Of a DNA stretch of 64,000 nucleotides, positions 7,311-64,000 are shown piece after piece. Origin of the DNA: Kiritimatiellia bacterium (GTDB lineage: Bacteria; Verrucomicrobiota; Kiritimatiellia; RFP12; UBA1067); assembly GCA_045636065.1 (NCBI GenBank), contig JAZTWW010000049.1, positions 5,168 to 69,167 of the forward strand, read 5' to 3'. The position numbers were made by a program, and so were the translations under genes. The stretch's first letter is position 1; every line of letters starts with the position of its first letter. The notes under the pieces were generated by a model. That model saw only the letters and a list, made by a program, of their open reading frames with translations. It was not told the origin of the DNA and did no database searches.

Positions 7311-8138
7311 TCATTCTTCGAGATCGGTGGCGTTTTCGTTGACCCAGGTGCGCGCCGCACCTGCGTTCTGGTACTCGTCGCCCGTCCAGTCCTCGTACTT
7401 GGCGCGGCCTGTCTCCTGGCCCACGACATTGCCGTTCTCGATGACATCGATGATCGTCTCCATGATGAGCCTTTCATCGTCGAGCTGGTCGAGCTGGTCG
7501 AGCATGAACTCGCAGTTGTCCTTTTCCATCACCGTCTTGGCGATGCGGGCGATGTCGGAGGCGAACTGCGCCGCATCGTCGCTGTCCTCAAGATCGTAGT
7601 TGTTCGGATCCATGACGAGCTGTTCGATCTGCTCCTGGGCGGAGAGGGCGACATTCTCGTCAGCGTCGGCGAGGGCCGCCGCAAGCTCCGGGAGGGCCTT
7701 GCGGCCGAAGGAGCCAAGCCCCTGGACGGCGTTCACCCTTACGCGGGGATCGGCCGATGCAAACGCCTGCGACGCCGCGTCAAGCGCGCTTTCAAACGTC
7801 TCCTCGCTCACAGCCCTCTCAATGGCATCGTTTATCGCCATATCCTCGGCGGTATACGGCGCAAGTTCGGGATCGGCCGAAACCTTAGGTTCGGCATTGT
7901 TGCCGCCCTCCTCCTGGACGGGCTGGGCCTCGGCCGACTTTGCGGCCTCCTCCTTGGCCTTCCTCCTAGCCTCGCGCTGGGCCTTTGCCTCGCGGCGCTT
8001 TTCGGCATAGGTCTTCTTCTTCGGCGTTTCGCCGGCCTGCGGCTTTTCCGCCGGGGCGTCGTTCAGATACCAGACGACCCCTGCCGCGCACGCCGCAATG
8101 ACGGCCGCTGCCGCAAGAAGCTTTGCACTTGCCTTCAT
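7311..8138 (-). CDS. Hypothetical signal-anchored protein with a Lys/Glu-rich linker and HEAT-like repeats
   Basis: 275 aa. N-terminal hydrophobic anchor, KKKTYAEKRREAKAQREARRKAKEE charged segment, PRVRVNAVQGLGSFG..ALPELAAALADADENVAL HEAT/PBS-lyase-like repeats. Confidence 0.45.
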   Translation of the reverse strand: MKASAKLLAAAAVIAACAAGVVWYLNDAPAEKPQAGETPKKKTYAEKRREAKAQREARRKAKEEAAKSAEAQPVQEEGGNNAEPKVSADPELAPYTAEDMAINDAIERAVSEETFESALDAASQAFASADPRVRVNAVQGLGSFGRKALPELAAALADADENVALSAQEQIEQLVMDPNNYDLEDSDDAAQFASDIARIAKTVMEKDNCEFMLDQLDQLDDERLIMETIIDVIENGNVVGQETGRAKYEDWTGDEYQNAGAARTWVNENATDLEE

Positions 8139-8157
8139 CTTCTCTCCTTTCTCCGTT

Positions 8158-9312
8158 CTACAGCGAAGCGTCCTCGTCGGGATCCGCCGATACGCCAGAT
8201 GGATCCTCGCTCGGCTTGCTTACCTCTCCGCCGTATGATTCACCTTTTACGACAAGCGTTATCTTACGCTTGACGACCGTCTTGGCAGGGTCGGAACCCG
8301 TCACCGAGACCTCAATCTCATACTTGCCCCTGTCATCGGGGCTGCCCCAGAGGAGACCTCCAAGGCCACTGAGGAAGAGCCCGTCGGGAAGATCCCTGTC
8401 GGTCGTGAACGTGACCGGCCTCGAATCGTCCGAAACGGGAATCCTGATTCTCATGGGTTCGTCAACCCTCACTACAAGCTGCGTCTCTGCGGGGAAATCG
8501 ACGATCGGCGGCTTGACGAGCGCGGCGTCCCTGAAGACGGCCGTGTACATCCCGCATTTCATGTCGTCCTTGACAACGAGCTTCGTGTTCCATCCGGCCA
8601 TCTCTCCGTCAGGATCGCGCCACATGTAGAAGACGCTTCCTTCAGCAGGCTTGGCGATGGCCGTTACATTGCCGCCGTTGTGCAGAAGCCCGTCCTTGGG
8701 CTCCATGCTCACCGTACCTTCGCCCTCGACCTTCGTTTCGACCCTCTTGGCGGTGGCGGACATCATGTCCTTTATGGTCTTGTGCTCGCCCAACGCGAGA
8801 TAGCCTGCAAGAGGCTTGTCGAGGGCCGTAAGAAGCTCCTCTATCGTCTCCTGGAACTTCCCGACCTTCATAAGGCCGCGCCTGCCCATGAAGGCATAGC
8901 GTGAAACTTTGCCTTCCTTGTCAGTGTAGGTCACGACCATCTGCGGATACCCGTGGAGGTTCCACTCGCCCTGATCCTTCAAGGCCGCATCGAGAAGCCC
9001 GGCTGCAAAATGATTACGGTCGATCTTGCCTTTTACGTTCATGTACGCGAGATACGGTTTCCTGTCCTCGCACCAGAGACGGAACGCCTCGCCCTCCATC
9101 ACCTTCTTGAGGCGCGTGCAGTATACGCATGCGTCGGAGGGGCGGGAGAGGAAGAGAACCATAGGTACGCCGTCGCGCTTGGCGGCCGCGAAGACCTCCT
9201 CGACGTTGACGTTCCACTGGCCGGTCTTCACATCGCCCTTCGATATCGTGAAGGCGCAAAGCTGCATGGCGGCGAAAAACGCCGCAGCGGCCGTCAGGGC
9301 AATCCTCTTCAT
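8158..9312 (-). CDS. Secreted protein with an N-terminal thioredoxin-like CxxC module and a C-terminal Ig-like/InlB-B-repeat-like module
   Basis: Start set at MKRIALTAAAAFFAAMQLCA (signal peptide; ATG complement 9310-9312 preceded by GGAGG). The ORF-track N-terminal extension overlaps the upstream gene and is Arg-rich junk. DGVPMVLFLSRPSDACVYCTRL parallels the Trx-like modules of the adjacent giant gene. AKPAEGSVFYMWRD motif. Confidence 0.55.
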   Translation of the reverse strand: MKRIALTAAAAFFAAMQLCAFTISKGDVKTGQWNVNVEEVFAAAKRDGVPMVLFLSRPSDACVYCTRLKKVMEGEAFRLWCEDRKPYLAYMNVKGKIDRNHFAAGLLDAALKDQGEWNLHGYPQMVVTYTDKEGKVSRYAFMGRRGLMKVGKFQETIEELLTALDKPLAGYLALGEHKTIKDMMSATAKRVETKVEGEGTVSMEPKDGLLHNGGNVTAIAKPAEGSVFYMWRDPDGEMAGWNTKLVVKDDMKCGMYTAVFRDAALVKPPIVDFPAETQLVVRVDEPMRIRIPVSDDSRPVTFTTDRDLPDGLFLSGLGGLLWGSPDDRGKYEIEVSVTGSDPAKTVVKRKITLVVKGESYGGEVSKPSEDPSGVSADPDEDASL

Positions 9313-9338: not shown

Positions 9339-12300
9339 TCACTCTTCCGTAATCACGTTGAGATCGACGGGGATCGACCTCTTGATCTGAAGTCCGCTTA
9401 CAGGCTCCTTCTCGGTGAAGTAGAGCGTACCGCTCGCGAAGGGCCTCGTGACGATATCCTCCGTGCCGTCGCCGCAGCCGCAGTCGTCCCAGCCGGGGAG
9501 AAGCGCGCACTTGTAAGTGCCTGTAAGGTACTTGCCGCTTGAGAACGTGACGCGGGCCGTGCCGGAGACGATGCCTGTCGCCTTGGCGTAGGACATCGTT
9601 ATGACGCCCACCTTGCCGGAAAGGCTGAATCCGCTCGACTTGGCCGTTGCAACGGCGCTCGGGACCGATGCTATCGATCCGTTGATGCCGTCCGCGGCGT
9701 AGCTCGGGTCGATCGAGACCGCGAACTTGCGCGACAGGTAGAGATCCTCGTAGTCGAACATCTCGCATATCTTAAGGGGCGAAAGGCTCTTCGTGAAGTA
9801 CCCGCCGTAGGCGAGAAGCGTCACCGCATACTCGTACCTGCCGTTCGTCTCCCTGTGGAGCATGTAGTTGACGAAGCCGGGGATGTCCTTAATGACCTGG
9901 AGCTGCGATGTGTCGTCGCACGTCTCGGCGGCATCGGCGCAGATCGTGACGGCTATGCCCGTCACATCCTTCTGGGCGCGCTTGAAGATGTAGAGCTTCG
10001 CCTTCTTCGCGTTCTCGGGATTGGCCGTCAAGGACACGGAGCCGTTCACGTACTGGCCGTCGGGGAGATAGCCGACATACGTGACACGCCCGTTTCTGAC
10101 GGCGGCGGTGGATGTCATCGTAAAGGTGATGTATCCCGTGCCGTGAGGCTCATAGATGCTTCCCGCCTCGGCCTCGCCCGCGCAGATGTCCCTGTTGGGG
10201 AGCGTCACCGTGTAGTAGCCCGTGAAGGACTTCCACACACCGGTCTCCTTGGCAGGCGTCTCGTTTACGGTGAGCGGGCCTTCAAAGTAGTTGGAGACGC
10301 CTTCGAGCGCGCCGGAGATCGTTCCCTCGGTGTCAAGGCTGAGGACAAGGGTGGATCCCTTGGAGTTCTTGAGCATCGCAAGGGCCGTCCCCGTTTCGGA
10401 TTCTATGTCCTCCCACGCGCCGGTGAAGGTCGTCACGGTGCTCTCGGTGCTCTGGAACTTTGCGGTGATCCTGTTCTTGGCGGTTACGCTCACCGTGAGC
10501 TCGCCCACGACTATCGTGCCGTCCTCATGGTCGTGGATGACTGCGCACGTGTTGTTGTACGCCTTGTTCGTGTAGGGGTTCTTCTCGGCGGGGTCGTCCA
10601 CGGTGAGGGTGAACGTGGTGGGCGTACCGGTCGTCTTCTTGCCGCCGACAGTCGTCGTGATAGTGAACGAGGCGGTGAACGTACCCTTCACGGTGGGCGT
10701 ACCGGAAAGGACGACAGCCTTCTTGACGCTATCGTACTTGAGCGTCACCCCGGCGGGAAGAGCGCCTGACTTCTTCGTGAGAGTCACCGTGCCGTTCGTG
10801 ACGTTGTAGACGCCGAACTCCACACCAGATGCGAAGTTCTGGTACAGCCCGACATCGTACTCCGTCTCTTCGAAGACGGGGTCGGTGGAGTCGCTTACCG
10901 TAAGCTTGTGGTCAGTTTCGTCGTCAAGCGTCGCGCCGGTGGGGAGCTTCACGGCCTCAAGGCCGAATACGGTGTACTCCGAAGGCGAGAACTGCTGGTT
11001 GTCGAAGAGCGTTACCGTTATCGACTTCTCGCCCGACTCGCCGTCGTTCCACGAGAGGGTGAGATCCTGCGGGATCGTGACGCGGCCCTCCTCGATCGTG
11101 CCGCCCTGCTCCTTTACGGTGAGCTTGACGGACGCAGCTCCGCTCGAACCGCCCGTTCTCTGGACGGCGACGGTGGCTGCACCGTTGAAGCTGAACGCCG
11201 TCTGCTCGGTCTTGACGAACTCGAATTCGCCAGGCTGCCAGATCTGGTACGTGACGACCGTCGCCTCGCCGGCGCCGTACTGCGTGGGAACTACGACATC
11301 GCCGGAATCGGTAGCCCTGAAGTAGAGGCCCTTTCCGTCGACGTCTTCAAGCCCTTCGACGCCTGTTATGTCGCCGATTCCCTGGATGCGGTAGATTTCG
11401 TCCTCGACGACGCGGATCGCAAGGAATCCGGACGACGTCGTGTAGCTCTTGGACGACTCCGCGGGGATCACGAGAACGGACGAGGAGAGCGTGTACGGTG
11501 CCGTTGCGTCGCCAGGATAGGCGAGCGCGAAAAGGTTGGTCTTGTTCGTCGCCGCAGGACGGGTGGCCCTAACGGTCACGTAGTACTCGGCCTCTCCGTC
11601 AACCTCGCAGTCGAGAGCGATATAACCCTGGGAGAGATCGCCAGTCGCCGTCGCAATCTCCTCAAGGTAGTCTTCGCCGTCTTCGTCTTCGGCGACTACG
11701 GAAAGGGCGAGCGTCACCTCGGCAGGGGCGGCAAGCTCGCTGCTGGGCGAAAGCGTCAGTTTCGCCATCGCATCGGCGCCCACCTCCATCTCGTACATGT
11801 CGATCGTATCGGCGCCGGAGAGCGTACCCTTTACGGACTCTTCAAGCTCGAACGAGTTCTCGCACATCGCAAGCTCTGTATCCTCCTCGGCATCGTCTTC
11901 CTTGAGGGCGAGAAGCTCCTCAAGGCGCAGGATCGTCGGGGCGACGCCCGCATTCTTGATGTAGCTGCTCGAGGTGGTGTACTCCGTTATGCGCCCGGCG
12001 ACGGTGCCGTCGTCCCTCACCGCAAAGAACGTGGGAACGCCCGTGCGCTCCTGGTCTGAAAGCTTCCAGTCCTCGTAGGCAAGCTGGTGGTTGCGATCAT
12101 AGATATCCTTCGCATCGGCGCTTGAGATCCCCTTGCGGCTCAGGTACTTTGCTCCCCCTTCAGATGCATAGGAGAGGAGCGTATTGTTGGGATCCTTCCT
12201 GCTGGGAAGATCGATCGTGACGAGCGTAACCTTGGTGTCTCTCGCCCACTCGATGAATTCATCCTGGTACTGGAGATACGACTTCACGTTCGCGCAGTCC

Positions 12301-27246: not shown

Positions 27247-27293
27247 CTAAATATCTCGGCAAAAATCAAGCCCCTTGCAAATTTTGGTGGCGT

Positions 27294-27377
27294 GTCACGC
27301 TCATGTCACGCTCATGTCACGTTCATGTCACGCTTTTGTCACGCTTTTGTCACGTTCATGTCACGCTCATGTCACAC
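27294..27377. repeat. Tandem array of 7.6 copies of an 11-bp unit (GTCACGCTCAT, with variants GTCACGTTCAT and GTCACGCTTTT) in a divergent intergenic region
   Basis: Read directly: gtcacgctcat gtcacgctcat gtcacgttcat gtcacgctttt gtcacgctttt gtcacgttcat gtcacgctcat gtcacac. The period is about one helical turn. The array ends 19 bp upstream of the TATAAT at 27397. Confidence 0.9.
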
Positions 27378-54459: not shown

Positions 54460-54471
54460 TTTGTCCCTGTC

Positions 54472-54900
54472 CTATTTCTGCTTTGTTGCCTGGATGCGTC
54501 CCTGCGCATCGCGGTACGTCGTCTTCCCGTAGCTGTCGGTGGTGGAAGTCCCCGTTATGCGGCCCATGGCGTCGCGGTATGTGGTCTTCCCGTAGCTGTC
54601 GGTGGTGGAAGTCCCCGTTATGCGGCCCATGGCATCACGGTATGTGGTCTTCCCGTAGGAGTCGGTTGTGGCAGTTCCCTGCTGGCGGCCCATCGCGTCG
54701 CGGTACGTGGTCTTTCCGCGGGAGTCGGTGTCGGCGGTTCCCTGCTTGCGGCCCATTGCGTCGCGGTACGTGGTCTTCCCGCGGGAGTCCGTGTCGGCAG
54801 TCCCCTTCTGGCGGCCCATCGCATCGCGGTAGACCTCCTTCGAACCTGCAAACGAGACCGCCGACATGGCGGCAAGCGCAACAACGAGGATGTTATTCAT
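54472..54900 (-). CDS. Small secreted protein made of 21-aa tandem repeats (YRDAMGRxxGTxxTDSxGKTT x5 plus a partial copy)
   Basis: Start at MNNILVVALAAMSAVSFAGS (ATG complement 54898-54900; AAGGAG RBS). The ORF-track 5' extension is unsupported. Protein is almost entirely repeats. Confidence 0.6.
   Translation of the reverse strand: MNNILVVALAAMSAVSFAGSKEVYRDAMGRQKGTADTDSRGKTTYRDAMGRKQGTADTDSRGKTTYRDAMGRQQGTATTDSYGKTTYRDAMGRITGTSTTDSYGKTTYRDAMGRITGTSTTDSYGKTTYRDAQGRIQATKQK
54507..54880. repeat. 63-bp tandem repeat, about 5.9 copies (coding repeats of the small secreted protein)
   Basis: Repeat-initiating cat(g/c)gcg recurs at 54565, 54628, 54691, 54754, 54817 (exact 63-bp spacing). Units are about 85-95% identical. 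Confidence 0.85.
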
Positions 54901-54927
54901 GCCACACTCCTTTCTTACAGGCTTGAT

Positions 54928-54936
54928 ATTATACCA
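54928..54936 (-). promoter_or_regulatory. Putative extended -10 (TGGTATAAT on minus strand) for the repeat-protein gene
   Basis: Minus strand reads ggggTGGTATAATatcaagcc, 28 nt upstream of the ATG. Confidence 0.4.
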
Positions 54937-55427
54937 CCCCCAAGCCCCCAAATCAAGCCGTAAATCGCACTCGGCGGATTTAGGGGGAAGGAGGATCAAT
55001 GGAGAAAGCGAATTAGGGGAAGGGATACAAGGGATCAAAGGGATCTAAGCGATAAATCCGATGAATGGACTGTGAATGGGCGCGGCACCTCCTCGCTTCC
55101 CCGTCTATGCCTCCATCCTCCATCCGAGCGGAGCCAAGGGTGAAGCCGCTCAGTTTAGCCGCATGGGGTGGCAATATGGGGGTGGCAGAGGCGAAATATA
55201 GTCCATAGAGCTTGGAGGCCTTTCGCCCCGGCGACGTTTCGCCGAGCCGGTGCGGCACTAACGCATGTAATCAAACTCTCTTGGCGAGGCGAACCGAGCG
55301 AGGGCCCGAATTATTCTCTCAAGCTAATAAACTTATGGGCCCGAGCGTTCGCCGGGGCGAGAAAGGCCGGAAAGCCCCGAAGATCATTGCGCAGCCTGCC
55401 ACCAAAACTGCGCGAGCCCCATGCGCG

Positions 55428-55556
55428 CTATGAGCGGTTCCCGCCCATTGCGGAGCGCAAACCGATGTATGTCGCCCCGAAGACCCGCCCTTCACCATAT
55501 TCCGCCACTAGCATCTGGGCGATTACTTTGGGGACAGCCTCTGATAAAATCCTATG
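55428..55556 (-). pseudogene. Remnant duplicating the 3' end of gene 58205..59320 (encodes ...ILSEAVPKVIAQMLVAEYGEGRVFGATYIGL...)
   Basis: ORF 55428..55697 C-terminus aligns with the C-terminus of the 58205..59320 product (ILSEAVPNEIAQMLVAEYGEGRIFAPPYIGL). Lies within the left direct repeat. No intact upstream coding region. Confidence 0.5.
55462..55551. repeat. Left copy of a ~90-bp direct repeat flanking the R-M cassette (partner 58239..58328)
   Basis: Shared ccgatgtatg...cgcccttcaccatattccgccactagcatctgggcgat(t/a)(t/c)(c/t)(a/t)ttggggacagcctctgataaaatc. 66-bp core with 3 mismatches, plus a 10-bp upstream match. Confidence 0.85.
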
Positions 55557-57207
55557 AGAATGCAAAATACTGCTCGACCATTTTCTGGCAACGTCTGCCG
55601 CCTGCCCTTGAAACGACGCGTTCCACACATGTATCGATTTTCGCAATATCACGCTCTCCATAAAGCCCGACAAGAGAATCAATGTCTTGCGCATCAAGGC
55701 TGTCCCATGCCGGTATGTGTACGCTCCTGAGATTCTGCGCCTGATAGCGAATGCTTCCGCCTCGCATCTGTGTCGAAAAGCGCCTCACTTGATCCGTGAC
55801 AAAGGAGCTTCGCAATATGACGCACAGTGCCTTCATATTCCACGAATTAGATGTTATCCAATACACGTTATGGTGCGGATAATATTCGCCATGTTCATCT
55901 AGCGCCACATTGCCGCCCTTCTGGATGTCAGGCAAAAGTATCTTTACGGATTTGAGCGTGCTGTACTTGATTCTGTCAAGTGTCCTATACCATGAGTCAG
56001 GATGTTTCCGCGCGCAGTAGCGGGATTTCAGCTTTTCGGCATTATTGTTCAAGTATGCCCTGGCTTTGGGGAACCTGTCCAAATCAAGCATAAGTCTGTC
56101 GTCAAAATGATCGTATGGATTAAGCATGTATCTGCTGTTCCATTCGATACATCCATCCCTAATGTCATCTGACGTTACAAGCGGCAGAAGACAAGATTCC
56201 TCTATTTCCGCATTTTTCTGGGGATCCAGGTAGATTTCATCGGCCCCTGACGCGACGCCTATGCCGACATGCGTGCCGACGCCAGATTCCTCGATTGTAG
56301 GGAATCTGCCGGCAATATCCTCCAGCCGCGCCTTTTCGTCTCTGTCGGTGCTCGCCCAAGGCTCACCATGTCGATACCATTTGTCGAAGCGGCACAAGCA
56401 TGATTTTGCAACGCCTGTCATGCACATAGACAAAGCATCGCCCTCGATTGACGAAATCTCTCCGGCATATGTCTCTCGCCCGACATGACGATCAATTACG
56501 TATATCGCCGGATATGCCGACACTGCGGTCTCAAAAGGCTGCGAATGCTCCATGTTCAAGTAAAGCGCCACATGGAAATCCTCGCCTATCATATGTCTCA
56601 GACGCTTCCCGTAGTTGGTTCTGACGAACCTATTGGAGCAGATGAACGAGAGAACGCCGCGTTTCGACAAAAGCGATAGTGACCGCTCGAAAAACGGCAC
56701 GTAAATGTCGCACCGTTCAGTGAACGTGGCATACCGCGCCTTGTACCATTTTTGCTTATCGGTTGATAGATTGTCAAAGCGTATATATGGCGGATTGCCA
56801 ATCACCACGTCGAAATGGGCACCTTCAAAATCGTAAAGAAGAAAATCCTCGCAGAAGAACCAGCGATCGACAAGCCTTTCGCAAACATCTTCCGGACAGC
56901 CAGCACAGACAAGTTTTGCCTTTACGGACTTGCGGACCAGCGAAATACTTTCACTGGAAATATCGAATGCTGCAAGAAAGCCGTCAAGTGATTCATCGCG
57001 CCAGTCGGGCGTCTCGGAAATAAGCGAGTCAACAATTGGCAACACAAACGCACCATCCCCGCAACTTGGCTCAAGAATCCGCAGCCCGCTCCATTTGCTA
57101 AAGCCGCCGGCGCGTCTGGTCTCGTGCATCATGTATAAAACGACCTCCGGGCGCGTGAATACGGCGCCTGTCGTTCGATGAGTAGGGACTGAGATGCCGA
57201 GTTTCAC
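55552..57207 (-). CDS. Gamma-class N6-adenine DNA methyltransferase, TaqI-like family (size and architecture as in M.PaeR7I/M.XhoI)
   Basis: 551 aa. N-terminal TGAVFTRPEVVLYMM (TaqI-like T.PEVV motif), SCGDGAF (motif I), VIGNPPYIRFDNL (motif IV NPPY). GTG start overlapping the upstream stop (GTGA). Visibly AT-richer codon usage than neighbours. Confidence 0.8.
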   Translation of the reverse strand: MKLGISVPTHRTTGAVFTRPEVVLYMMHETRRAGGFSKWSGLRILEPSCGDGAFVLPIVDSLISETPDWRDESLDGFLAAFDISSESISLVRKSVKAKLVCAGCPEDVCERLVDRWFFCEDFLLYDFEGAHFDVVIGNPPYIRFDNLSTDKQKWYKARYATFTERCDIYVPFFERSLSLLSKRGVLSFICSNRFVRTNYGKRLRHMIGEDFHVALYLNMEHSQPFETAVSAYPAIYVIDRHVGRETYAGEISSIEGDALSMCMTGVAKSCLCRFDKWYRHGEPWASTDRDEKARLEDIAGRFPTIEESGVGTHVGIGVASGADEIYLDPQKNAEIEESCLLPLVTSDDIRDGCIEWNSRYMLNPYDHFDDRLMLDLDRFPKARAYLNNNAEKLKSRYCARKHPDSWYRTLDRIKYSTLKSVKILLPDIQKGGNVALDEHGEYYPHHNVYWITSNSWNMKALCVILRSSFVTDQVRRFSTQMRGGSIRYQAQNLRSVHIPAWDSLDAQDIDSLVGLYGERDIAKIDTCVERVVSRAGGRRCQKMVEQYFAFS

Positions 57208-57923
57208 GATTGTGCAACTAGATGATTGTAGAGCGACGAGAAGAAACGCATGGCACCAACAGCCTCACCTCCATCGCACACCGAAGCTGTCGCCTTGTCA
57301 GATACCAGAAGCGCCGTGGCCGTATAATCGCGTTCTAGCACAAGTCGTTCGCAAAGAATCTCGTATCGCCTGAGATAGCTTGTGCCTTCAAACACGGGAA
57401 GCGGCGGCAACGGGCTTTTGGCAATATTGACGGCACGATCTGAAGCAGGGGAATTTTCCAAGAAAAACAGATAACCAAGCCAAGGTGCAGGCACGACGCC
57501 AAAAACGCGCTCACGGTATGCCGTCCAAAAATCCCGTGACACGCCAAGCACTTCTTCTGAACGGTTGTTGAAATTATTCCCGAAACTGCCGCTTTGAGAC
57601 TTCAACTCTATCGCCGCGACGAGCTTGCCTTCACGAAGCACTACAATGTCCCAGTTTTTCTGCGGCCGATAATATCCCGGAACTGGAACAGCCCTGTCGA
57701 AAAATATCTCAGTTTTTGCGAACCCTGCCATTACGCAAATTTCCTCGATTAGCTTGGCAAAGCCATCGAGATGGCGGCCACCCGTAACTTGGCCTCGCGT
57801 TCCAGCATCGGAAGTGCCACGCTTTTTCTGCGCTGACGCCTGCTGTTGCCGCGTTTTCCAGTAAAACTTGGCCGCTTTCTTCAGCTTTTGCTGGAATTCA
57901 GTTTCTGTATAAGGAAATGACAT
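57204..57923 (-). CDS. Putative type II restriction endonuclease (size and context suggest XhoI/PaeR7I family)
   Basis: 239 aa from MSFPYTETEF (ATG complement 57921-57923; the ORF track extends to 57965). Immediately upstream of and overlapping the MTase. No recognisable family match otherwise. Acidic/Lys active-site candidates (DIVVLREGKLVAAIELKSQ). Confidence 0.5.
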   Translation of the reverse strand: MSFPYTETEFQQKLKKAAKFYWKTRQQQASAQKKRGTSDAGTRGQVTGGRHLDGFAKLIEEICVMAGFAKTEIFFDRAVPVPGYYRPQKNWDIVVLREGKLVAAIELKSQSGSFGNNFNNRSEEVLGVSRDFWTAYRERVFGVVPAPWLGYLFFLENSPASDRAVNIAKSPLPPLPVFEGTSYLRRYEILCERLVLERDYTATALLVSDKATASVCDGGEAVGAMRFFSSLYNHLVAQS

Positions 57924-57929
57924 GCTGAT

Positions 57930-57938
57930 ATTATACCA
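57930..57938 (-). promoter_or_regulatory. Putative extended -10 (TGGTATAAT on minus strand) for the R-M operon. Predicts a leaderless or near-leaderless endonuclease mRNA.
   Basis: Minus strand reads aaaaTGGTATAATatcagcATG. The -10 ends 7 nt before the ATG at 57923. Confidence 0.35.
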
Positions 57939-58204
57939 TTTTCCTTTCTGGGACTGCAACTGCAACTTTTCTTAAAAGCTCCGCAATGGGCGCAACGCTC
58001 ATAATCCGCATGGGGGGCGCGCAGTTTTGGGTGGCAGGGTTCGCAAATGGTTCGGGGCTTTTCGGCCTTTTTCTCGCCCCGGCGATCGCGAGGAAGCATT
58101 TTTAGGGGATGTGCCCGAGCCGGGGCAGCTCTCGGGCAACGCTTACGCACATCCAATCCGCCATAATGCTTCTGTAATCGTCGGGGCGAAAAGGCCTCCA
58201 AGCC

Positions 58205-59320
58205 TTATGGGCTATGGGGGAATGATGCGGGCTTAAGGCCGATGTATGGGGGCGCGAAAATGCGCCCTTCACCATATTCCGCCACTAGCATCTGGGCGAT
58301 TTCATTGGGGACAGCCTCTGATAAAATCACAATTGCGCCGTGATTCTGGATAAAATTTGCAATTTCACCAAAGAGAGACTGACAAGCAGGATTTGATGCC
58401 AAAGAGGGCTGTCCCCGATTCTCAAGGGGCTGTCCCCAATTTAGATGGCGGAAAACCGCATTATTTTGGGCTACTTCGGCAAATATCCGCTTCTGGAAGA
58501 CTGTTGCGGATGGGTTGGCGGTGGTGAAACGGCATTTCCAGGCGGAGACCTCCTCTTCGGTATTGAGCACCCTCCCTTGGGCTGGCGACCATAGGCCCAT
58601 ATCCACATCAAATCCGAGCTCTTCAAACCAGAACACCGCAACAGCCATCCGCCCGGTTCCCACCTTCTTCGTGAGCATTGGGAGATTTGGGGCCGTGGAA
58701 CCGCCTGAGGATTGGGAGAGACTTGGAACGTCAGATGCGGGCTGCGGCGGTTCTGCGCTTTTCGCCGATGGCCACCAGTGGGGGAGGCCGTTCTGGGCGA
58801 TGAAGTTGCGCATAAGGGCGCGCGGCTCTTCGATATTGCCGGTAAGCACATGATCCCAGAGGGGAGGCGAATCGACGCCGGCAATATCGGCGAACGGCCT
58901 CGTGAACGTCTTTAGAACATGTTTCGGAACGGCCGGCGAAAGGATCACATAGGTGCCAGACTCCTTTACGACCCCTGCGAGAAAACTCGCCATTTTCCCG
59001 GAATCCGCATCAATTTCGCTAAATTCAACCGTTTCACTTGGGGACTGTCCCCAATTCCCGCATGGTGCCAGACTCCCTTCTGAGGGAAATGTTGCCAATG
59101 TGGAAATGTTGCCAGGTCCAATACCAATGTTGCCAATTGGATATTGTGAACTGGAATTGGCAACACTGGCAACATTGGCAACATTTTCAGATGGAACCGC
59201 CGAAATAGCATATGCACCATTCTGGCGCGATACGCACAGATATGGCACTTCGCCAAGCGCGAAATAGGCGTACATCACATTCCGTCCCACATGCGGGATG
59301 CTTACTGTCTCAGATAGCAT
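58205..59320 (-). CDS. Hypothetical protein (371 aa). The 3' end is duplicated at 55428..55556. Contains several internal DNA repeats and palindromes.
   Basis: No recognisable domain. N-terminal ENVANVASVAN...IGNIGIGPGNI region encoded by a symmetric repeat array. WGQSP/WGQP/EAVP segments encoded by GGGGACAGYCCC motifs. Confidence 0.5.
   Translation of the reverse strand: MLSETVSIPHVGRNVMYAYFALGEVPYLCVSRQNGAYAISAVPSENVANVASVANSSSQYPIGNIGIGPGNISTLATFPSEGSLAPCGNWGQSPSETVEFSEIDADSGKMASFLAGVVKESGTYVILSPAVPKHVLKTFTRPFADIAGVDSPPLWDHVLTGNIEEPRALMRNFIAQNGLPHWWPSAKSAEPPQPASDVPSLSQSSGGSTAPNLPMLTKKVGTGRMAVAVFWFEELGFDVDMGLWSPAQGRVLNTEEEVSAWKCRFTTANPSATVFQKRIFAEVAQNNAVFRHLNWGQPLENRGQPSLASNPACQSLFGEIANFIQNHGAIVILSEAVPNEIAQMLVAEYGEGRIFAPPYIGLKPASFPHSP
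58239..58328. repeat. Right copy of the ~90-bp direct repeat (partner 55462..55551)
   Basis: See left copy. This copy forms the 3' coding end of gene 58205..59320. Confidence 0.85.
59085..59190. repeat. Symmetric array: 3x AATGTTGCCA followed by 3x TGGCAACA(T/C) (its inverted complement), inside the CDS
   Basis: Read directly: aaatgttgccaatg..aaatgttgccaggt..caatgttgccaatt ... attggcaacac tggcaacat tggcaacat ttt. Forms a ~100-bp imperfect palindrome centred near 59145. Confidence 0.8.
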
Positions 59321-59426
59321 GGCGGATTCCTTAAATTCGATTCCCAGATATTCCTATAATATGCCATGATAATGAAAGCGGCGGGCGGTTGCCCGCCCGC
59401 CGCTTTGTGCCGGATTGGATGGGTGG

Positions 59427-62400
59427 TTACTCGGCGGGATACGCGGGGATCCCGTCCTCATAGGCGCTTACCGCAATCTTGAAGTAGCGCACGCCACTGT
59501 CGACCACTGGAGCCTGGAGTGAGGTGGAGCTTGTTTCAGCCTGCACAACATTGCCGCTTTCAACCTTCATGGTTCCATCAGCCGTAGCGCCATAAACAAC
59601 ACCATAGTAAAGGCCAGGAATTGTCTTTACGGTGAATGTCGTATTGGCCGAAGCTACAGCCATTGGAGTTGTCGCAGTGTCAACCTCTGGCTTTACACTT
59701 ACGCCGTTCACGGATTTACTCTCATCAAGCATAAACTTCACTTTGTATGTACCGTCGCCCATATCGATCAGATACTTTCCTGTAGTATCCTGACCTATCT
59801 TCTGGGCATCCACAAAAGCCTGAGTGACATTTGCGCCGTTACTCCCGGATGTCCAAATCTGCACATTATTCAAAGTGCCAATGTTGGATACCGTAATTCC
59901 AGTGAAAGTTGTTTCATCGCTTGTCGGAGTCACTTTGATGAGCGTTGCAGAAGATGGAATGGAGATTTCCGAAGTCGTATTGGTAATTACCGCAGTACTT
60001 CCATCCATGTAGCCATACGAGACGAGCTTGAGGGCACCAGCGACAGGCGTAACGTTGTAAAGTCCGTTGGCAACGGTCACCTTGGAAACATTAGTCTCCG
60101 TCGTAATTGAGCTCGAGGAGAGAATTGTAACTTCGTCGGCATCAAGACCGGTAGCATCAATCGTAAGCGTCTCACCTGCTCCTGTTGGCAGCGTGACCGT
60201 GCCAGAAACGGTAAGCGCAGTATCAGCGGCCTTGAAGGTTGCGCCATCGCTGAACGTCAGGTTGCCAGTGAGCGTGCCTGTGCCGCCGAACGTACCAGAA
60301 ACCGTCGTCGCACCAACCCACGTGCCGGTCAGGTTAACGGAACCGCTAATCGTAGCGGGGATGGTTACATCCTGCGTACCAGACAGCGTGAGCGTACCGC
60401 CCGTTCCGCCGACATTGAACTGCGTGATGCGGTTCGAGACGAACTTGCCGCTCCATTCGGTATCCTTCGACTGCGTGACCGTGAGGGTTCTGTCATTCGC
60501 ACCACCGCTCGTGGCGTTCCAGTCGGAACGGATATTCTTTGAACCAGCCAGATTGCCGATGGTAGTTGTGCCGTTATTGTTCTTCGTGATAATCAGCGAG
60601 TCCGCAAGCTCAACCTGAACTGTCAGCGTCGTAGCAGGCATCTTCGCATCATCGCTTGGGAACGTACGCCATCCAGCCGTGGATGAATACTTGATCATAC
60701 CTGTGCCGGTGACGGTTGAATAATCTGAATAGTCTTCAGCGTTTGCCGTGCTTGTCAGCTCGAGAACGCCGGTGTCGCCAAGCGTCATGTTCGTGCCGCC
60801 GCCCCATCTGTCACGGCCAGTTGTTGTGAATGTTCCATCAACTACAATGCCACCGGTCGTCCAAAGGAATCCTGAGTCTTTAAGAATAACATTACCTCCT
60901 TCGTCAATGAACAAACCACCGGCAGGGCCATTGTTGAAATTACCAAGGCTGAGAACTTTCCCATTCCCCACAACAACCGAGCTGGCGACAAACTCACGAC
61001 TTGTAGAGCCAACCACAAAGCGGCTATTGTCTCCACCTGCTGAAAGGTATCCATCAAACTCGGAAAGATCGCCCGTAAGATACACCGTCTTCTTGGCAAT
61101 GCCTGTAGTTGCCAGATTGTATGTGCCAGATCCAGTCACTTTGCTGGGAACAGTAATAGATACATCAGACGATGTATAATTGCCATCCTGCGTAAACCCA
61201 CCGGAGCCGATAATCAGCTCGCCGATGTTGTGGGCGTCGTTCCCAAGGGCGAGATATGCCTCGGTTCCATTCATGCAAACTTTAGAGCCCGTGTTGCCAT
61301 ATAACGCAAGTTGAATATTTGCGTTGAAATTATGATTCTTGATTTCCACTGTTCCCGCCCAGTTGGCATTCTTCCACCACGCATCTGCAGTTGGGGAGGG
61401 AGCCTTGCCGTCAAACACGACCGTGCCGGAGCCCTTGACGAGCGAAGTCGATGTGGAACCGGTCGTCGCCGCCATGCTTCCCGTTGCGGTAAGCGTGCCA
61501 TTCACTATGAAGCCGTTGTTCACGCTCCAGGTCTTTCCGCTGGGAATCTCGACCGAAGAGCCGGAGTTCACGACGACGTAGCCACCGCCGCTAACCGTTG
61601 CCTGCGTCGGTAGCGACGACCCAAAGACGACAATCTTGTTATTCAACTCGAACGAGCCACTGAAGTTGTCCCATTTCTTTACAAGAAGCAATACGTTCGG
61701 CGCCGAATCAGATCCCTTCAACAGACCGCTGCCCTTGAGTTCGCGAAGCTGCGTACGACTGCCATTATTGGAATTGTAACCGTTACCATTGCTGAGCCAC
61801 AATGCATACTCGCAATCACCATCCAGTTCAAGCGCAGGGGCGACATCCGTAGTGCCAGTATTTATCCAGCCCTTGAGCATACTAACCTTCAACGTCGAAC
61901 TATTGTTGCCATATTCGTTCATGTCAAAGGATGAACCAACGAGGTTGCTGATGTTCTTGACCCAGACCGTGCCGGACCAGCCAATGGCCGTCCAACCCTT
62001 GCCAGTGACAGGGGCGGAACCATTGTACACAACCATGCCTGCGCCGGTGAAGGTGGTGGCGTCGAGGCGATCGGCGTTGACGTTAAGAACGACGTCCTTG
62101 GCAACGTCGATGGTGGCGGCGGTGATCTTCTCGCTGCCGGAAAGCGTCAGCGTACCAGAACCAGTCAAGTAAACCGTGCCGGACAGATTCTTTTCTTCAT
62201 TAACAGCATATTCCGTGGCGCCATCGACAGCAATCTCGAGGTCGTTCTCGCCGACTTCCGGCACATACTCAACGACCTGAATAGCAGCAAAGCATCCGCG
62301 GGCGGACGGGGTACCTCCGCCAATACGGTGCGCTACCATAGTAACGGTATCGCCGGTAAGGACGGCGGAGACGAGTGTATTCACGCCTTCCTCAATCGGT

Positions 62401-63740
62401 TCTGCACTATTAGACGCGCCAGCGTTGCCCCAGGATGTTGTACCTGTCTGCTGAACTCCATTAACATATGTGAAGTTGAAGCCGTTGATGGTATCGTAGC
62501 CGAACTGGGCTCCATCCTGATCAGTGGAGTGATAGACGATAACGCGATAATGCTCGTAAGGGATGCCTGTGATTGTAACAGTCGGGGTAGGCCCGCCAGC
62601 ACTTTCGTCGATATAGCCGTGGAGCGGATTGCTCGCTGGTGTGAGGTTGGCGCAGTTCCAGTGTCCGCGAGTGCCAGAAATCGAGACGCTAACGCCGGAA
62701 GCCACGGAGGCCGCGCCGGTGGAATCGATGGCGTTGACGGTGTTGAACGTTGCATTGTCGGCCACAACAAAATTGTTCCAGGAAGTTCCGGGGACTGCAT
62801 AACCATCAAGACCGACATCGGCAGAGGTCGTGAGGCCGTTGCCCGCATCGTTCGTGAAGTTGATGTTGATGGACGGGGTGTAGGCCGCTTCTGCTGGATC
62901 GCCATCGACATAGTAGAGAACGATGCCAGTTGAGGTCTGGACGAGTTCGCAAGTGCCGACCTTCTCGCTTCCAGTAAGCGTGGTAGAGCCAGAGGTGACG
63001 GACGAAAGAGCTTTGGTGCAGACAAGATTTCCTTCAGAATCCTTTATCTTGATTGACGCATCAGCTGTGAAGGTGGGCGTAGAAGAGGTGAAGGAAACGA
63101 GCGTCTTGGACGACACCTGCGAAGTGCCGGTAAGCGTGACATCCGCCATCTTGATCTTGTGGTAGGCGGCGGAAACGGCCTGGTACGAGACGCTGCCCGC
63201 ACCCTTCAGGTAATATTCAAATGTGTTGTTGGCATTGACAGACGTGAGGTCAACATTCCACGCAATGCCGTTCGCTCTGGCCACGGAAAGCTTGATTGCC
63301 TGACCATCGGTAATATTGCCGCCGCCAAAGCCGCCTATCGTCAACTGCGAGGTTTCGTCAACGGTCATCCACATCGTAGTGTCGCCCTGATACTTGACGA
63401 AGGTGTTCATCGTGACGTTGGCGCCGTTGTAGAGACCCATGCGAAGGTTCCAGCCCTCAACCGACATCGTGGCGTTGATGTTGATGGTGTCGCCGTCAAA
63501 AAGGATTGGATCCCATGTGTTTTCGCCGGACTTCGCGGGTGTGCCAGACGGATTAGCACCGCTGGAATCCTGCCAATTTCCCGTGCCATTCCACGCATCA
63601 GTGCCGACGAACTTCCACGTGTAGTTCTCAGTTTCACCGGTGACGGGGTTCGGCTTCGCAAAGTCCGCCCATGCGCCTCCATATGCCGCGACTGCCAAGA
63701 GCAGCGCGAACGCTTTGATTCTACTCATTAATGATTTCAT
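59427..63740 (-). CDS. Giant (1437 aa) secreted beta-helix repeat protein with autotransporter-associated (PATR-like) beta-strand repeats. Putative adhesin.
   Basis: Signal peptide MKSLMSRIKAFALLLAVAAYGGAWA. Strong GAAGGAG RBS. Recurrent G.GTLTL.G...T....V..G.L-type segments (GSGTLTLSGSEKITAATIDVAKDVVLNVN; GGTGGTLTLSGTQDVTIPATISGSVNLTG). Thr/Ser/Gly/Asn-rich. Confidence 0.7.
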   Translation of the reverse strand: MKSLMSRIKAFALLLAVAAYGGAWADFAKPNPVTGETENYTWKFVGTDAWNGTGNWQDSSGANPSGTPAKSGENTWDPILFDGDTININATMSVEGWNLRMGLYNGANVTMNTFVKYQGDTTMWMTVDETSQLTIGGFGGGNITDGQAIKLSVARANGIAWNVDLTSVNANNTFEYYLKGAGSVSYQAVSAAYHKIKMADVTLTGTSQVSSKTLVSFTSSTPTFTADASIKIKDSEGNLVCTKALSSVTSGSTTLTGSEKVGTCELVQTSTGIVLYYVDGDPAEAAYTPSININFTNDAGNGLTTSADVGLDGYAVPGTSWNNFVVADNATFNTVNAIDSTGAASVASGVSVSISGTRGHWNCANLTPASNPLHGYIDESAGGPTPTVTITGIPYEHYRVIVYHSTDQDGAQFGYDTINGFNFTYVNGVQQTGTTSWGNAGASNSAEPIEEGVNTLVSAVLTGDTVTMVAHRIGGGTPSARGCFAAIQVVEYVPEVGENDLEIAVDGATEYAVNEEKNLSGTVYLTGSGTLTLSGSEKITAATIDVAKDVVLNVNADRLDATTFTGAGMVVYNGSAPVTGKGWTAIGWSGTVWVKNISNLVGSSFDMNEYGNNSSTLKVSMLKGWINTGTTDVAPALELDGDCEYALWLSNGNGYNSNNGSRTQLRELKGSGLLKGSDSAPNVLLLVKKWDNFSGSFELNNKIVVFGSSLPTQATVSGGGYVVVNSGSSVEIPSGKTWSVNNGFIVNGTLTATGSMAATTGSTSTSLVKGSGTVVFDGKAPSPTADAWWKNANWAGTVEIKNHNFNANIQLALYGNTGSKVCMNGTEAYLALGNDAHNIGELIIGSGGFTQDGNYTSSDVSITVPSKVTGSGTYNLATTGIAKKTVYLTGDLSEFDGYLSAGGDNSRFVVGSTSREFVASSVVVGNGKVLSLGNFNNGPAGGLFIDEGGNVILKDSGFLWTTGGIVVDGTFTTTGRDRWGGGTNMTLGDTGVLELTSTANAEDYSDYSTVTGTGMIKYSSTAGWRTFPSDDAKMPATTLTVQVELADSLIITKNNNGTTTIGNLAGSKNIRSDWNATSGGANDRTLTVTQSKDTEWSGKFVSNRITQFNVGGTGGTLTLSGTQDVTIPATISGSVNLTGTWVGATTVSGTFGGTGTLTGNLTFSDGATFKAADTALTVSGTVTLPTGAGETLTIDATGLDADEVTILSSSSITTETNVSKVTVANGLYNVTPVAGALKLVSYGYMDGSTAVITNTTSEISIPSSATLIKVTPTSDETTFTGITVSNIGTLNNVQIWTSGSNGANVTQAFVDAQKIGQDTTGKYLIDMGDGTYKVKFMLDESKSVNGVSVKPEVDTATTPMAVASANTTFTVKTIPGLYYGVVYGATADGTMKVESGNVVQAETSSTSLQAPVVDSGVRYFKIAVSAYEDGIPAYPAE

Positions 63741-63840
63741 TGGATTACTCCTTCTCTCTCTTTTGAATTAAAGTTGATTGTTGGAAATGGATTGTCTTTG
63801 GACGCGGGCATGTGCAGCCAAGTCCATTACCAGCGTCTCC

Positions 63841-63893
63841 CACTGAACACTGAACACTGAATACTGGATACTGGATACTGGATACTGAATACT
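63841..63893. repeat. Heptanucleotide tandem repeat (3x CACTGAA, 3x TACTGGA, 1x TACTGAA, plus a partial copy) about 100 bp upstream of the giant PATR-like gene
   Basis: Read directly: cactgaa cactgaa cactgaa tactgga tactgga tactgga tactgaa tactc. Lies in the 5' region of the minus-strand gene starting at 63740. Confidence 0.9.
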
Positions 63894-64000
63894 CTCCCCG
63901 CCTCCGCGCCTCTGCGTCTCTGCGCGAGAATAAAACAACGCGATCTCCGCGCGCCATTCAAACGGCGGCGCGCGCGAAGCGTATCTGGCCTATTGGCCCT

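Follow-up and report, generated by a model that had tools for sequence, protein, structure and literature searches.

A heptanucleotide tandem array at positions 63841-63893 of the window, that is, of the whole stretch of 64,000 nucleotides analyzed here, is real and lies far beyond chance. We give a probability of roughly 55% to the reading that it is a simple-sequence array generated by slippage in spacer DNA, typical of its lineage, which changes only slowly in length and at most tunes the expression of the giant gene next to it. The main value of the array is that of a pointer to the Kiritimatiellae as a group unusually rich in intergenic arrays with 7-12-nt units and in palindromic array elements. 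Both kinds of element break assemblies, and the lineage-wide pattern is a modest lead.

A heptanucleotide array upstream of a gene for a giant secreted protein

On the + strand the array reads (CACTGAA)3(TACTGGA)3(TACTGAA)1 followed by TACT, which is exactly the composition given in the preliminary description of this DNA (three CACTGAA, three TACTGGA, one TACTGAA and a partial copy). On the - strand, which carries the giant gene, it reads (TTCAGTA)(TCCAGTA)3(TTCAGTG)3. It is located 101-153 nt upstream of the ATG of this gene, in agreement with the earlier estimate of about 100-150 bp upstream of a start codon at 63740. The tract is impure, as it is interrupted by the three unit variants CACTGAA, TACTGGA and TACTGAA, and its longest perfect period-7 run comprises 27 nt or 3.9 units (63861-63887).

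TRF detected the array at 63842-63893 with a period of 7, 7.4 copies, 93% matches and a score of 69, whereas in 100 dinucleotide-preserving shuffles of the window the highest score for arrays of period 5-12 was 46 and none scored 50 or more. With this distance from the shuffle maximum the array belongs to the long simple sequence repeats, which have a unit of 5-11 nt. The two-unit pattern YACTGRAYACTGRA occurs six times in the window, all six inside the array, against an expectation of 0.

The giant gene (59427..63740, - strand) encodes a protein of 1437 amino acids. Its start codon (ATG at 63740-63738) and the ribosome-binding site GAAGGAG (63748..63754, - strand), which stands 7 nt before the ATG, had both been proposed earlier and were confirmed. 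The N-terminus of the protein is a typical signal peptide, MKSLMSRIKAFALLLAVAAYGGAWA/DF, and residues 500-1250 were modeled from a 40-sequence alignment as an all-beta solenoid with a pLDDT of 86. The best PDB matches of the model are the autotransporter passenger beta-helices Hap, EspC, Hbp and Ag43, although these matches are weak (E = 0.016-0.05, TM about 0.2). Judged from the model it is reasonable to regard the protein as a secreted beta-solenoid, and together with the signal peptide this supports the earlier assignment to the secreted beta-helix type. The label "PATR-like", which had also been attached to the protein, is not backed by any profile, as the comparison with Pfam and NCBIfam gave no family match.

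Homologs with 45-67% identity come from Kiritimatiellae MAGs of rumen and gut, with several copies per genome. The organism of the window probably belongs to this group too. An identical copy of the giant protein is on record once (NCBI), and its 90% cluster consists of a single member. A strong terminator hairpin of the giant gene was seen at about 59370-59400.

Promoter candidates and leader around the array

No sigma-70-type site reached the scan threshold in the region 63500-64000. Under relaxed criteria, the best sigma-70-like candidate is TTGGCT-N19-GACAAT (63791..63821, - strand; 8 of 12 matches, over-long spacer), which is located wholly downstream of the array. A weaker alternative on the same strand combines TTCAGT (63854-63849), taken from the penultimate heptamer, with GGTAAT (63831-63826) at a spacing of 17 nt. 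The promoters of the homologs share the motif TTGnnn-N17-TGGTA(C/G/T)(A/G)AT, of which the window has only TGGTAAT, at 63832-63826. Judged by its letters, the pair TTCAGT-17 nt-TGGTAAT matches only weakly, and a change in heptamer copy number would leave its spacing unaffected.

A -35/-10 pair that brackets the array was not found, even in the relaxed scan, and therefore the array is not positioned between -35 and -10 elements. In the preliminary description the array had been put forward as a candidate for phase variation, with slipped-strand switching that acts through the spacing of promoter elements. This is not supported, though not refuted either, by the present results: the tract is short and interrupted (3.9 perfect units), lies outside every candidate -35/-10 interval, is not conserved upstream of the approximately 45 homologs and resembles arrays that are common in the intergenic DNA of the lineage.

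In the 107 nt that are visible upstream of the tract no promoter is recognizable. This part contains a terminator-like, GC-rich hairpin followed by TTGTTTTATT (63929..63986, - strand; inner stem 63974-63966/63956-63948), at which transcription of the preceding unit probably stops. Within the hairpin loop, at 63963-63961, lies the stop codon of one - strand frame. A coding origin of the array was considered and set aside as improbable. The + strand frames across the array are closed by TGA inside the units. The one - strand frame that is open from the window end through this array and the octamer array adjoining it (63827-64000, 58 codons, stop near 63827) is probably non-coding, because it is Arg-rich and a terminator-like hairpin precedes it.

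In the preferred reading of a lineage-typical simple-sequence array, the tract would be a long simple sequence repeat with a 7-nt unit, placed in the non-coding spacer between the terminator-like hairpin and the leader of the giant gene. Its effect on the giant gene may be nil or modest and would be exerted by shifting the terminator and the adjoining CGCAGAG repeats relative to the promoter.

The tract might also act at the RNA level, if it forms part of a long 5' UTR to which a translational regulator binds, as has been proposed for the TAACTGA repeats of Beggiatoaceae. TAACTGA direct repeats are found in intergenic regions of marine Beggiatoaceae, Cyanobacteria and Bacteroidetes (MacGregor, 2015, PMC4679880). 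They are often mixed with other heptamers and show indels in steps of 7 nt between close strains (PMC4679880). The array of the window is likewise an intergenic direct repeat of heptamers with an ACTGA core (PMC4679880), the leaders of the homologs are long (100-290 nt), and an ECF-like GAAT-N15-CGTT was read by eye at about 63962-63940. However, the unit is ACTGAAY/ACTGGAT and not ACTGATA, and controls with permuted units gave no preference for the unit (see below). The TAACTGA sets of the Beggiatoaceae BOGUAY genome mostly have 2-6 copies in forward orientation and stand a few nt from start codons (PMC4679880), whereas the array is separated from the ATG by 101 nt, so that it shares neither the unit nor the position of this family. 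A strong SD follows unique sequence here, the leader RNA fold is no more stable than that of shuffled sequences (z = -0.93), no Rfam family matched in the region, and the tract is preceded by the terminator-like hairpin. A role as RNA-level leader element thus appears extremely improbable.

Comparison with the heptanucleotide repeats of hmw1A and hmw2A

In Haemophilus influenzae the genes hmw1A and hmw2A carry (TGAAAGA)n tracts of 13-38 pure units at a distance of 69-106 nt from the start, located between the promoters P2 and P1; longer tracts lead to lower expression, and constructs with 14-24 units have been assayed (Dawid, 1999; PMC2651432; PMC8262952). The array of the window has the same unit length and stands at a similar distance (101 nt from the start codon) upstream of the gene for a large, secreted, beta-helical protein of the adhesin type, and whole-unit slippage has been proposed for it as well. 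It may be asked whether it is a contingency locus of the HMW type, in which slippage in the number of heptamers grades or switches the expression of the surface protein. The gene product of such a locus would be located at the surface or interact with the host, and this is indicated here by the signal peptide, the beta-solenoid model and the weak matches to autotransporter adhesins. In addition, the array may have expanded in the past, judging from its unit variants, and the arrays of the lineage change in length by whole units and cluster round the giant-gene family.

However, the hmw systems are defined by pure tracts of 13-38 units, a mapped promoter pair, variation between isolates and measured effects. 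The array of the window has 7.4 units in three variants, and instead of a long uninterrupted series of identical units it offers at most 3.9 perfect ones, which is also far below the 14-24 units of the constructs. It has no mapped promoter, with none recognizable in the 107 nt upstream of the tract, and it is conserved in no homolog. Similar arrays adjoin rpoZ and ribosomal-protein genes, and the organism would be a commensal polysaccharide degrader, in which selection of the immune type is not in evidence. We therefore consider a contingency locus of the HMW type unlikely. Should the array switch or grade expression after all, contingency regulation of this type would reach into a commensal and uncultured gut phylum, and switching would suggest that rumen polysaccharide degraders vary their surface repertoire.

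Short-unit arrays are frequent in the intergenic DNA of the lineage

According to the summary of the survey by Mrazek (2007) in PMC4679880, heptanucleotides outnumber the other classes of repeats with 5-11-nt units in most of the prokaryotic genomes surveyed and are attributed to polymerase slippage; the Kiritimatiellae are not named among the repeat-rich taxa in that summary. As far as the class is described there, the array of the window agrees with the long simple sequence repeats in being a 7-nt array beyond chance in an array-rich lineage with mainly non-coding arrays, and we see no difference in kind. A literature search for tandem repeats in Kiritimatiell* found no relevant paper.

Short-unit arrays were surveyed in the window and the related loci (457 kb in total) with thresholds of at least 3 copies and a TRF score of at least 40. 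The survey yielded 37 TRF rows, corresponding to about 35 distinct arrays, with periods of 7, 8 and 9 dominating, whereas shuffled sequence would be expected to give about 5 arrays at this score and none from 50 upwards. Non-coding DNA has at least 17 times the array density of coding DNA, even under a crude coding mask which overcalls genes. The lineage is thus enriched in arrays of 7-12-nt units, mainly in non-coding DNA, as expected for long simple sequence repeats. The units themselves are highly diverse and include AAGTAGG, GAGGGAA, TTTCGAT, AAGTGTA, TTGGAGC, GAAAAGTT, NNNNCTAGA and others.

A change in length was detected in one of these arrays. Three contigs from different samples (L171, L172 and L174), all of which encode the identical homolog P0004, contain a degenerate 9-mer NNNNCTAGA array in which L171 and L174 differ from L172 by an indel of 27 nt, i.e., three units, while the flanks are otherwise identical. 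Hence, even the impure arrays of the lineage change by whole units between strains, which makes the past expansion and contraction postulated for the heptamer array plausible. The heptamer array itself is absent from the 47 homolog loci and from the region upstream of the approximately 45 homologous genes, including those of the closest homologs. The homologs P0060, P0003 and P0096, each represented by 4-6 samples, have no upstream arrays, and their spacers are invariant. The contigs encoding P0073 and P0053 are identical copies across samples.

In the preferred reading the heptamer array would be one of these lineage-wide intergenic arrays of 7-12-nt units, which gain and lose whole units over evolutionary time. 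It may have originated by replication slippage or by unequal recombination, and its copy number would be expected to drift slowly and not to provide a fast on/off switch.

Two of the three clear short-unit arrays of the 64-kb window flank the giant gene. By inspection, the loci with a full-length homolog contain 14 arrays, of which about 10 are located in an intergenic region adjoining the homolog, a tally without a proper baseline, since the loci were picked around the giant-gene family and the gene calls are crude. These counts hint that array placement is non-random with respect to the giant-gene family. Arrays also adjoin housekeeping genes, namely an 11-mer array next to rpoZ/smpB and 9-mer arrays next to the S10 operon. 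The former, TGTCACGCTCA x7.5 (27293-27375, TRF score 124), occupies a divergent spacer, with rpoZ (RNA_pol_Rpb6)/smpB (- strand) on one side and an ORF of 113 aa (+ strand) on the other. With its near-helical period it could bend the DNA. Its end is about 20 nt before a TATAAT. The 9-mers are degenerate NNNNCTAGA arrays (L171:7263-7343 and 7982-8164; L172:7985-8191), which in L171 and L172 flank a gene of the 23S_rRNA_IVP family in direct orientation, between the giant-gene homolog and the S10 operon. A unit of the NNNNCTAGA type also follows the giant-gene homolog of a different species (L008:8957-9056).

Some of the arrays are arranged as inverted pairs. In the window, a nonamer-array palindrome of about 100 nt, (AATGTTGCC)n ... 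caattggatattg ... (GGCAACAYT)n, is located at 59087..59186, just downstream of the terminator hairpin of the giant gene, and overlaps the 5' part of a 371-aa ORF (58205..59320). Its self-complementarity is 77%, and it shares 80% identity with a palindrome in another MAG (L033:201-303), which abuts a TTGCAA-N17-TATAAT promoter. In L022, the inverted heptamer pairs GAGGGAA/TTCCCTC and AAGTAGG/CCTACTT surround GC hairpins (2711-2888 and 7995-8159) and stand on both sides of the giant-gene homolog. These arrays lead, directly or after the hairpin, into the promoters TTGACA-N17-TATGAT and TTGACA-N18-TAAAAT; (TTCCCTC)7 runs straight into the former.

Such pairs raise the question whether the heptamer array belongs to a palindromic element as one of its arms. 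The other arm, (TTCAGTR)n, would then be expected past the end of the window, and the long stem of the element would serve as terminator or insulator or form the ends of a small mobile element. Besides the pairs in L022, in L033 and at 59087-59186, inverted pairs are present in the metagenome loci L054 and L061, and the window ends 107 nt past the heptamer array on the side away from the giant gene, so that just these 107 nt beyond the tract are shown. However, no inverted (reverse-complement) copy of the array was found in the window, these 107 nt included, although the arms of the known pairs are separated by 37-95 nt. Moreover, solitary arrays (L002, L004, L171) are equally common. It is very improbable that the tract is an arm of such an element.

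In a wider sense, rumen Kiritimatiellae could carry an organized system of intergenic arrays, acting as insulators, regulator platforms or recombination sites, with the heptamer array as one module. Pointers in this direction are the inverted pairs round GC hairpins, the arrays that abut consensus promoters, the unit families shared between species (GGCAACAYT palindromes, NNNNCTAGA nonamers and CGCAGAGN octamers) and an apparent preference of the arrays for sites flanking the multi-copy giant genes. We regard such a system as distinctly unlikely. If it exists, the arrays would diversify or tune the repertoire of surface proteins.

An adjoining octamer array and possible protein binding

The heptamer array is directly adjoined by a degenerate octanucleotide array with the unit CGCAGAGN (63894..63925, - strand), which reads CGCAGAGA CGCAGAGG CGCGGAGG CGGGGAGA. 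With a TRF score of 36 against the shuffle maximum of 46, this octamer array taken alone is within chance. However, repeats of the CGCAGAGN type recur upstream of giant-gene homologs in L014 and L022, and the region may therefore be regulatory. Sites of the form CGCAGAG-N9/10-CGCAGAG are present at L014:1450-1473, L022:2427-2450 and 2562-2585, L029:38-61 and 63894-63925 of the window, and nowhere else in the 226 loci or the window. The pair in L029 precedes the promoter of another gene by about 20 nt, far from the homolog in this locus, and in L022 the motif forms the arms of a palindrome, TTTTTATCGCAGAGACTTGAGAGACGCAGAG. From its distribution the CGCAGAG pair may serve as a regulator site. 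The idea that CGCAGAG is a motif of the whole genome was rejected, because the window shows no enrichment (12 occurrences against 17.9 expected).

Contiguous 7-nt units are known as operators from the plasmid pSM19035, in which the ribbon-helix-helix repressor omega occupies uninterrupted series of 7-10 WATCACW heptads located upstream of promoters. By analogy, the heptads of the array, perhaps together with the CGCAGAG octamers, might form a putative operator that is cooperatively bound by a repressor or nucleoid protein. They are contiguous and stand just upstream of the likely promoter zone, as the omega operators do, and the recurrence of the CGCAGAG pair before homologs in L014 and L022 and before the L029 promoter would fit such a role. 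The unit does not match WATCACW, however, and neither a ribbon-helix-helix gene nor any other small DNA-binding gene was recognized in the neighboring ORFs, so that neither the unit nor the cognate repressor gene of an omega-type operator was found.

Other precedents come from arrays in further bacteria. A preprint on Nostoc reports that heptamer arrays affect the recO promoter. Geobacter metallireducens has intergenic arrays of 4 or 5 tandem 7-8-nt units (MTYCTGA, GTTGCTYN), which are often paired on opposite strands and have been proposed as sites for global regulators (PMC2700814). The inverted arrays in the relatives and at 59087-59186 resemble these pairs. However, the Geobacter arrays are dispersed multi-copy families with fixed units, whereas the YACTGRA array is single-copy in the window and the related loci, and its heptamer is absent from all 47 of the latter. 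The array units of the lineage are, in addition, too diverse to be explained by a single binding protein, and a period of 7 nt places successive sites on different faces of the helix, which few protein families tolerate. Taken together, binding of a regulator to the heptads seems quite improbable.

The YACTGRA unit in metagenomes

Four consecutive YACTGRA units occur in at least 120 metagenome contigs with GC contents from 0.28 to 0.70. Among the matches listed (at least 120), the flanks have nothing in common with the giant-gene locus and none encodes a homolog; several of the matches are eukaryotic satellites adjacent to telomeres. In viral contigs, (YACTGRA)4 gave 12 matches compared with 17, 15 and 6 for three permuted units. 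As permuted units are equally common, the abundance of YACTGRA reflects the general commonness of heptanucleotide arrays. The YACTGRA matches recall the STRR repeats of cyanobacteria. A cross-phylum family of heptamers with an ACTG core, uniting STRR, TAACTGA and MTYCTGA, was considered and discarded, since permuted units are as frequent, the flanks are unrelated and some of the matches are eukaryotic.

Three contigs of one metagenome (L064, L067 and L080) share a dispersed element whose flanks, tagacgcgaagcgtcaataaaaaacaagaaaatccacattctgaa ... tacttgcgggc-hairpin, are the same in all three and which contains 10, 4 and 6 heptamers at three different loci, arranged as TACTGAA runs that end in one TACTGGA. 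This is variation in YACTGRA copy number within a mobile or REP-like element of an unrelated organism.

Further features of the window and the related loci

The last approximately 8.5 kb of the window (55552-64000) have a GC fraction of 0.51-0.55, down from about 0.61. Encoded in this stretch are an XhoI-type restriction enzyme and an Eco57I-type methylase, and it also contains the giant gene and the unannotatable 371-aa ORF. On the left it is bordered (54460-55560) by a repeat region of about 1 kb after a class II tRNA synthetase gene, with a 63-nt repeat x5.4 (54494-54831), a 9-mer x4 (55020-55056) and CCTCCAT x2.3. The stretch 55552-64000 resembles an acquired island with repeats at its border.

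At L168:9985-10165 (identical to L015:8985-9165) three REP-like hairpin units gagaaatcaaggagatgcggcatcttgccgcgt are combined with an GAAAAGTT x4.5 array. Units and array are located just upstream of a gene (10191-10817) with a weak match to Y1_Tnp (IS200/RAYT type), and units and gene together may represent a REP/RAYT system in Kiritimatiellae.

In two subfamilies of the homologs a leader of about 110 nt is conserved (L227:1340-1500, L237:1340-1500, L240-L242:1-20). It follows a TTGTGG-N17-TGGTACAAT promoter and contains the inverted repeat tgtgtgca...tgcacaca. Three independent assemblies of homologs with this leader end precisely 20 nt before the ATG. This suggests that the leader is present in multiple copies.
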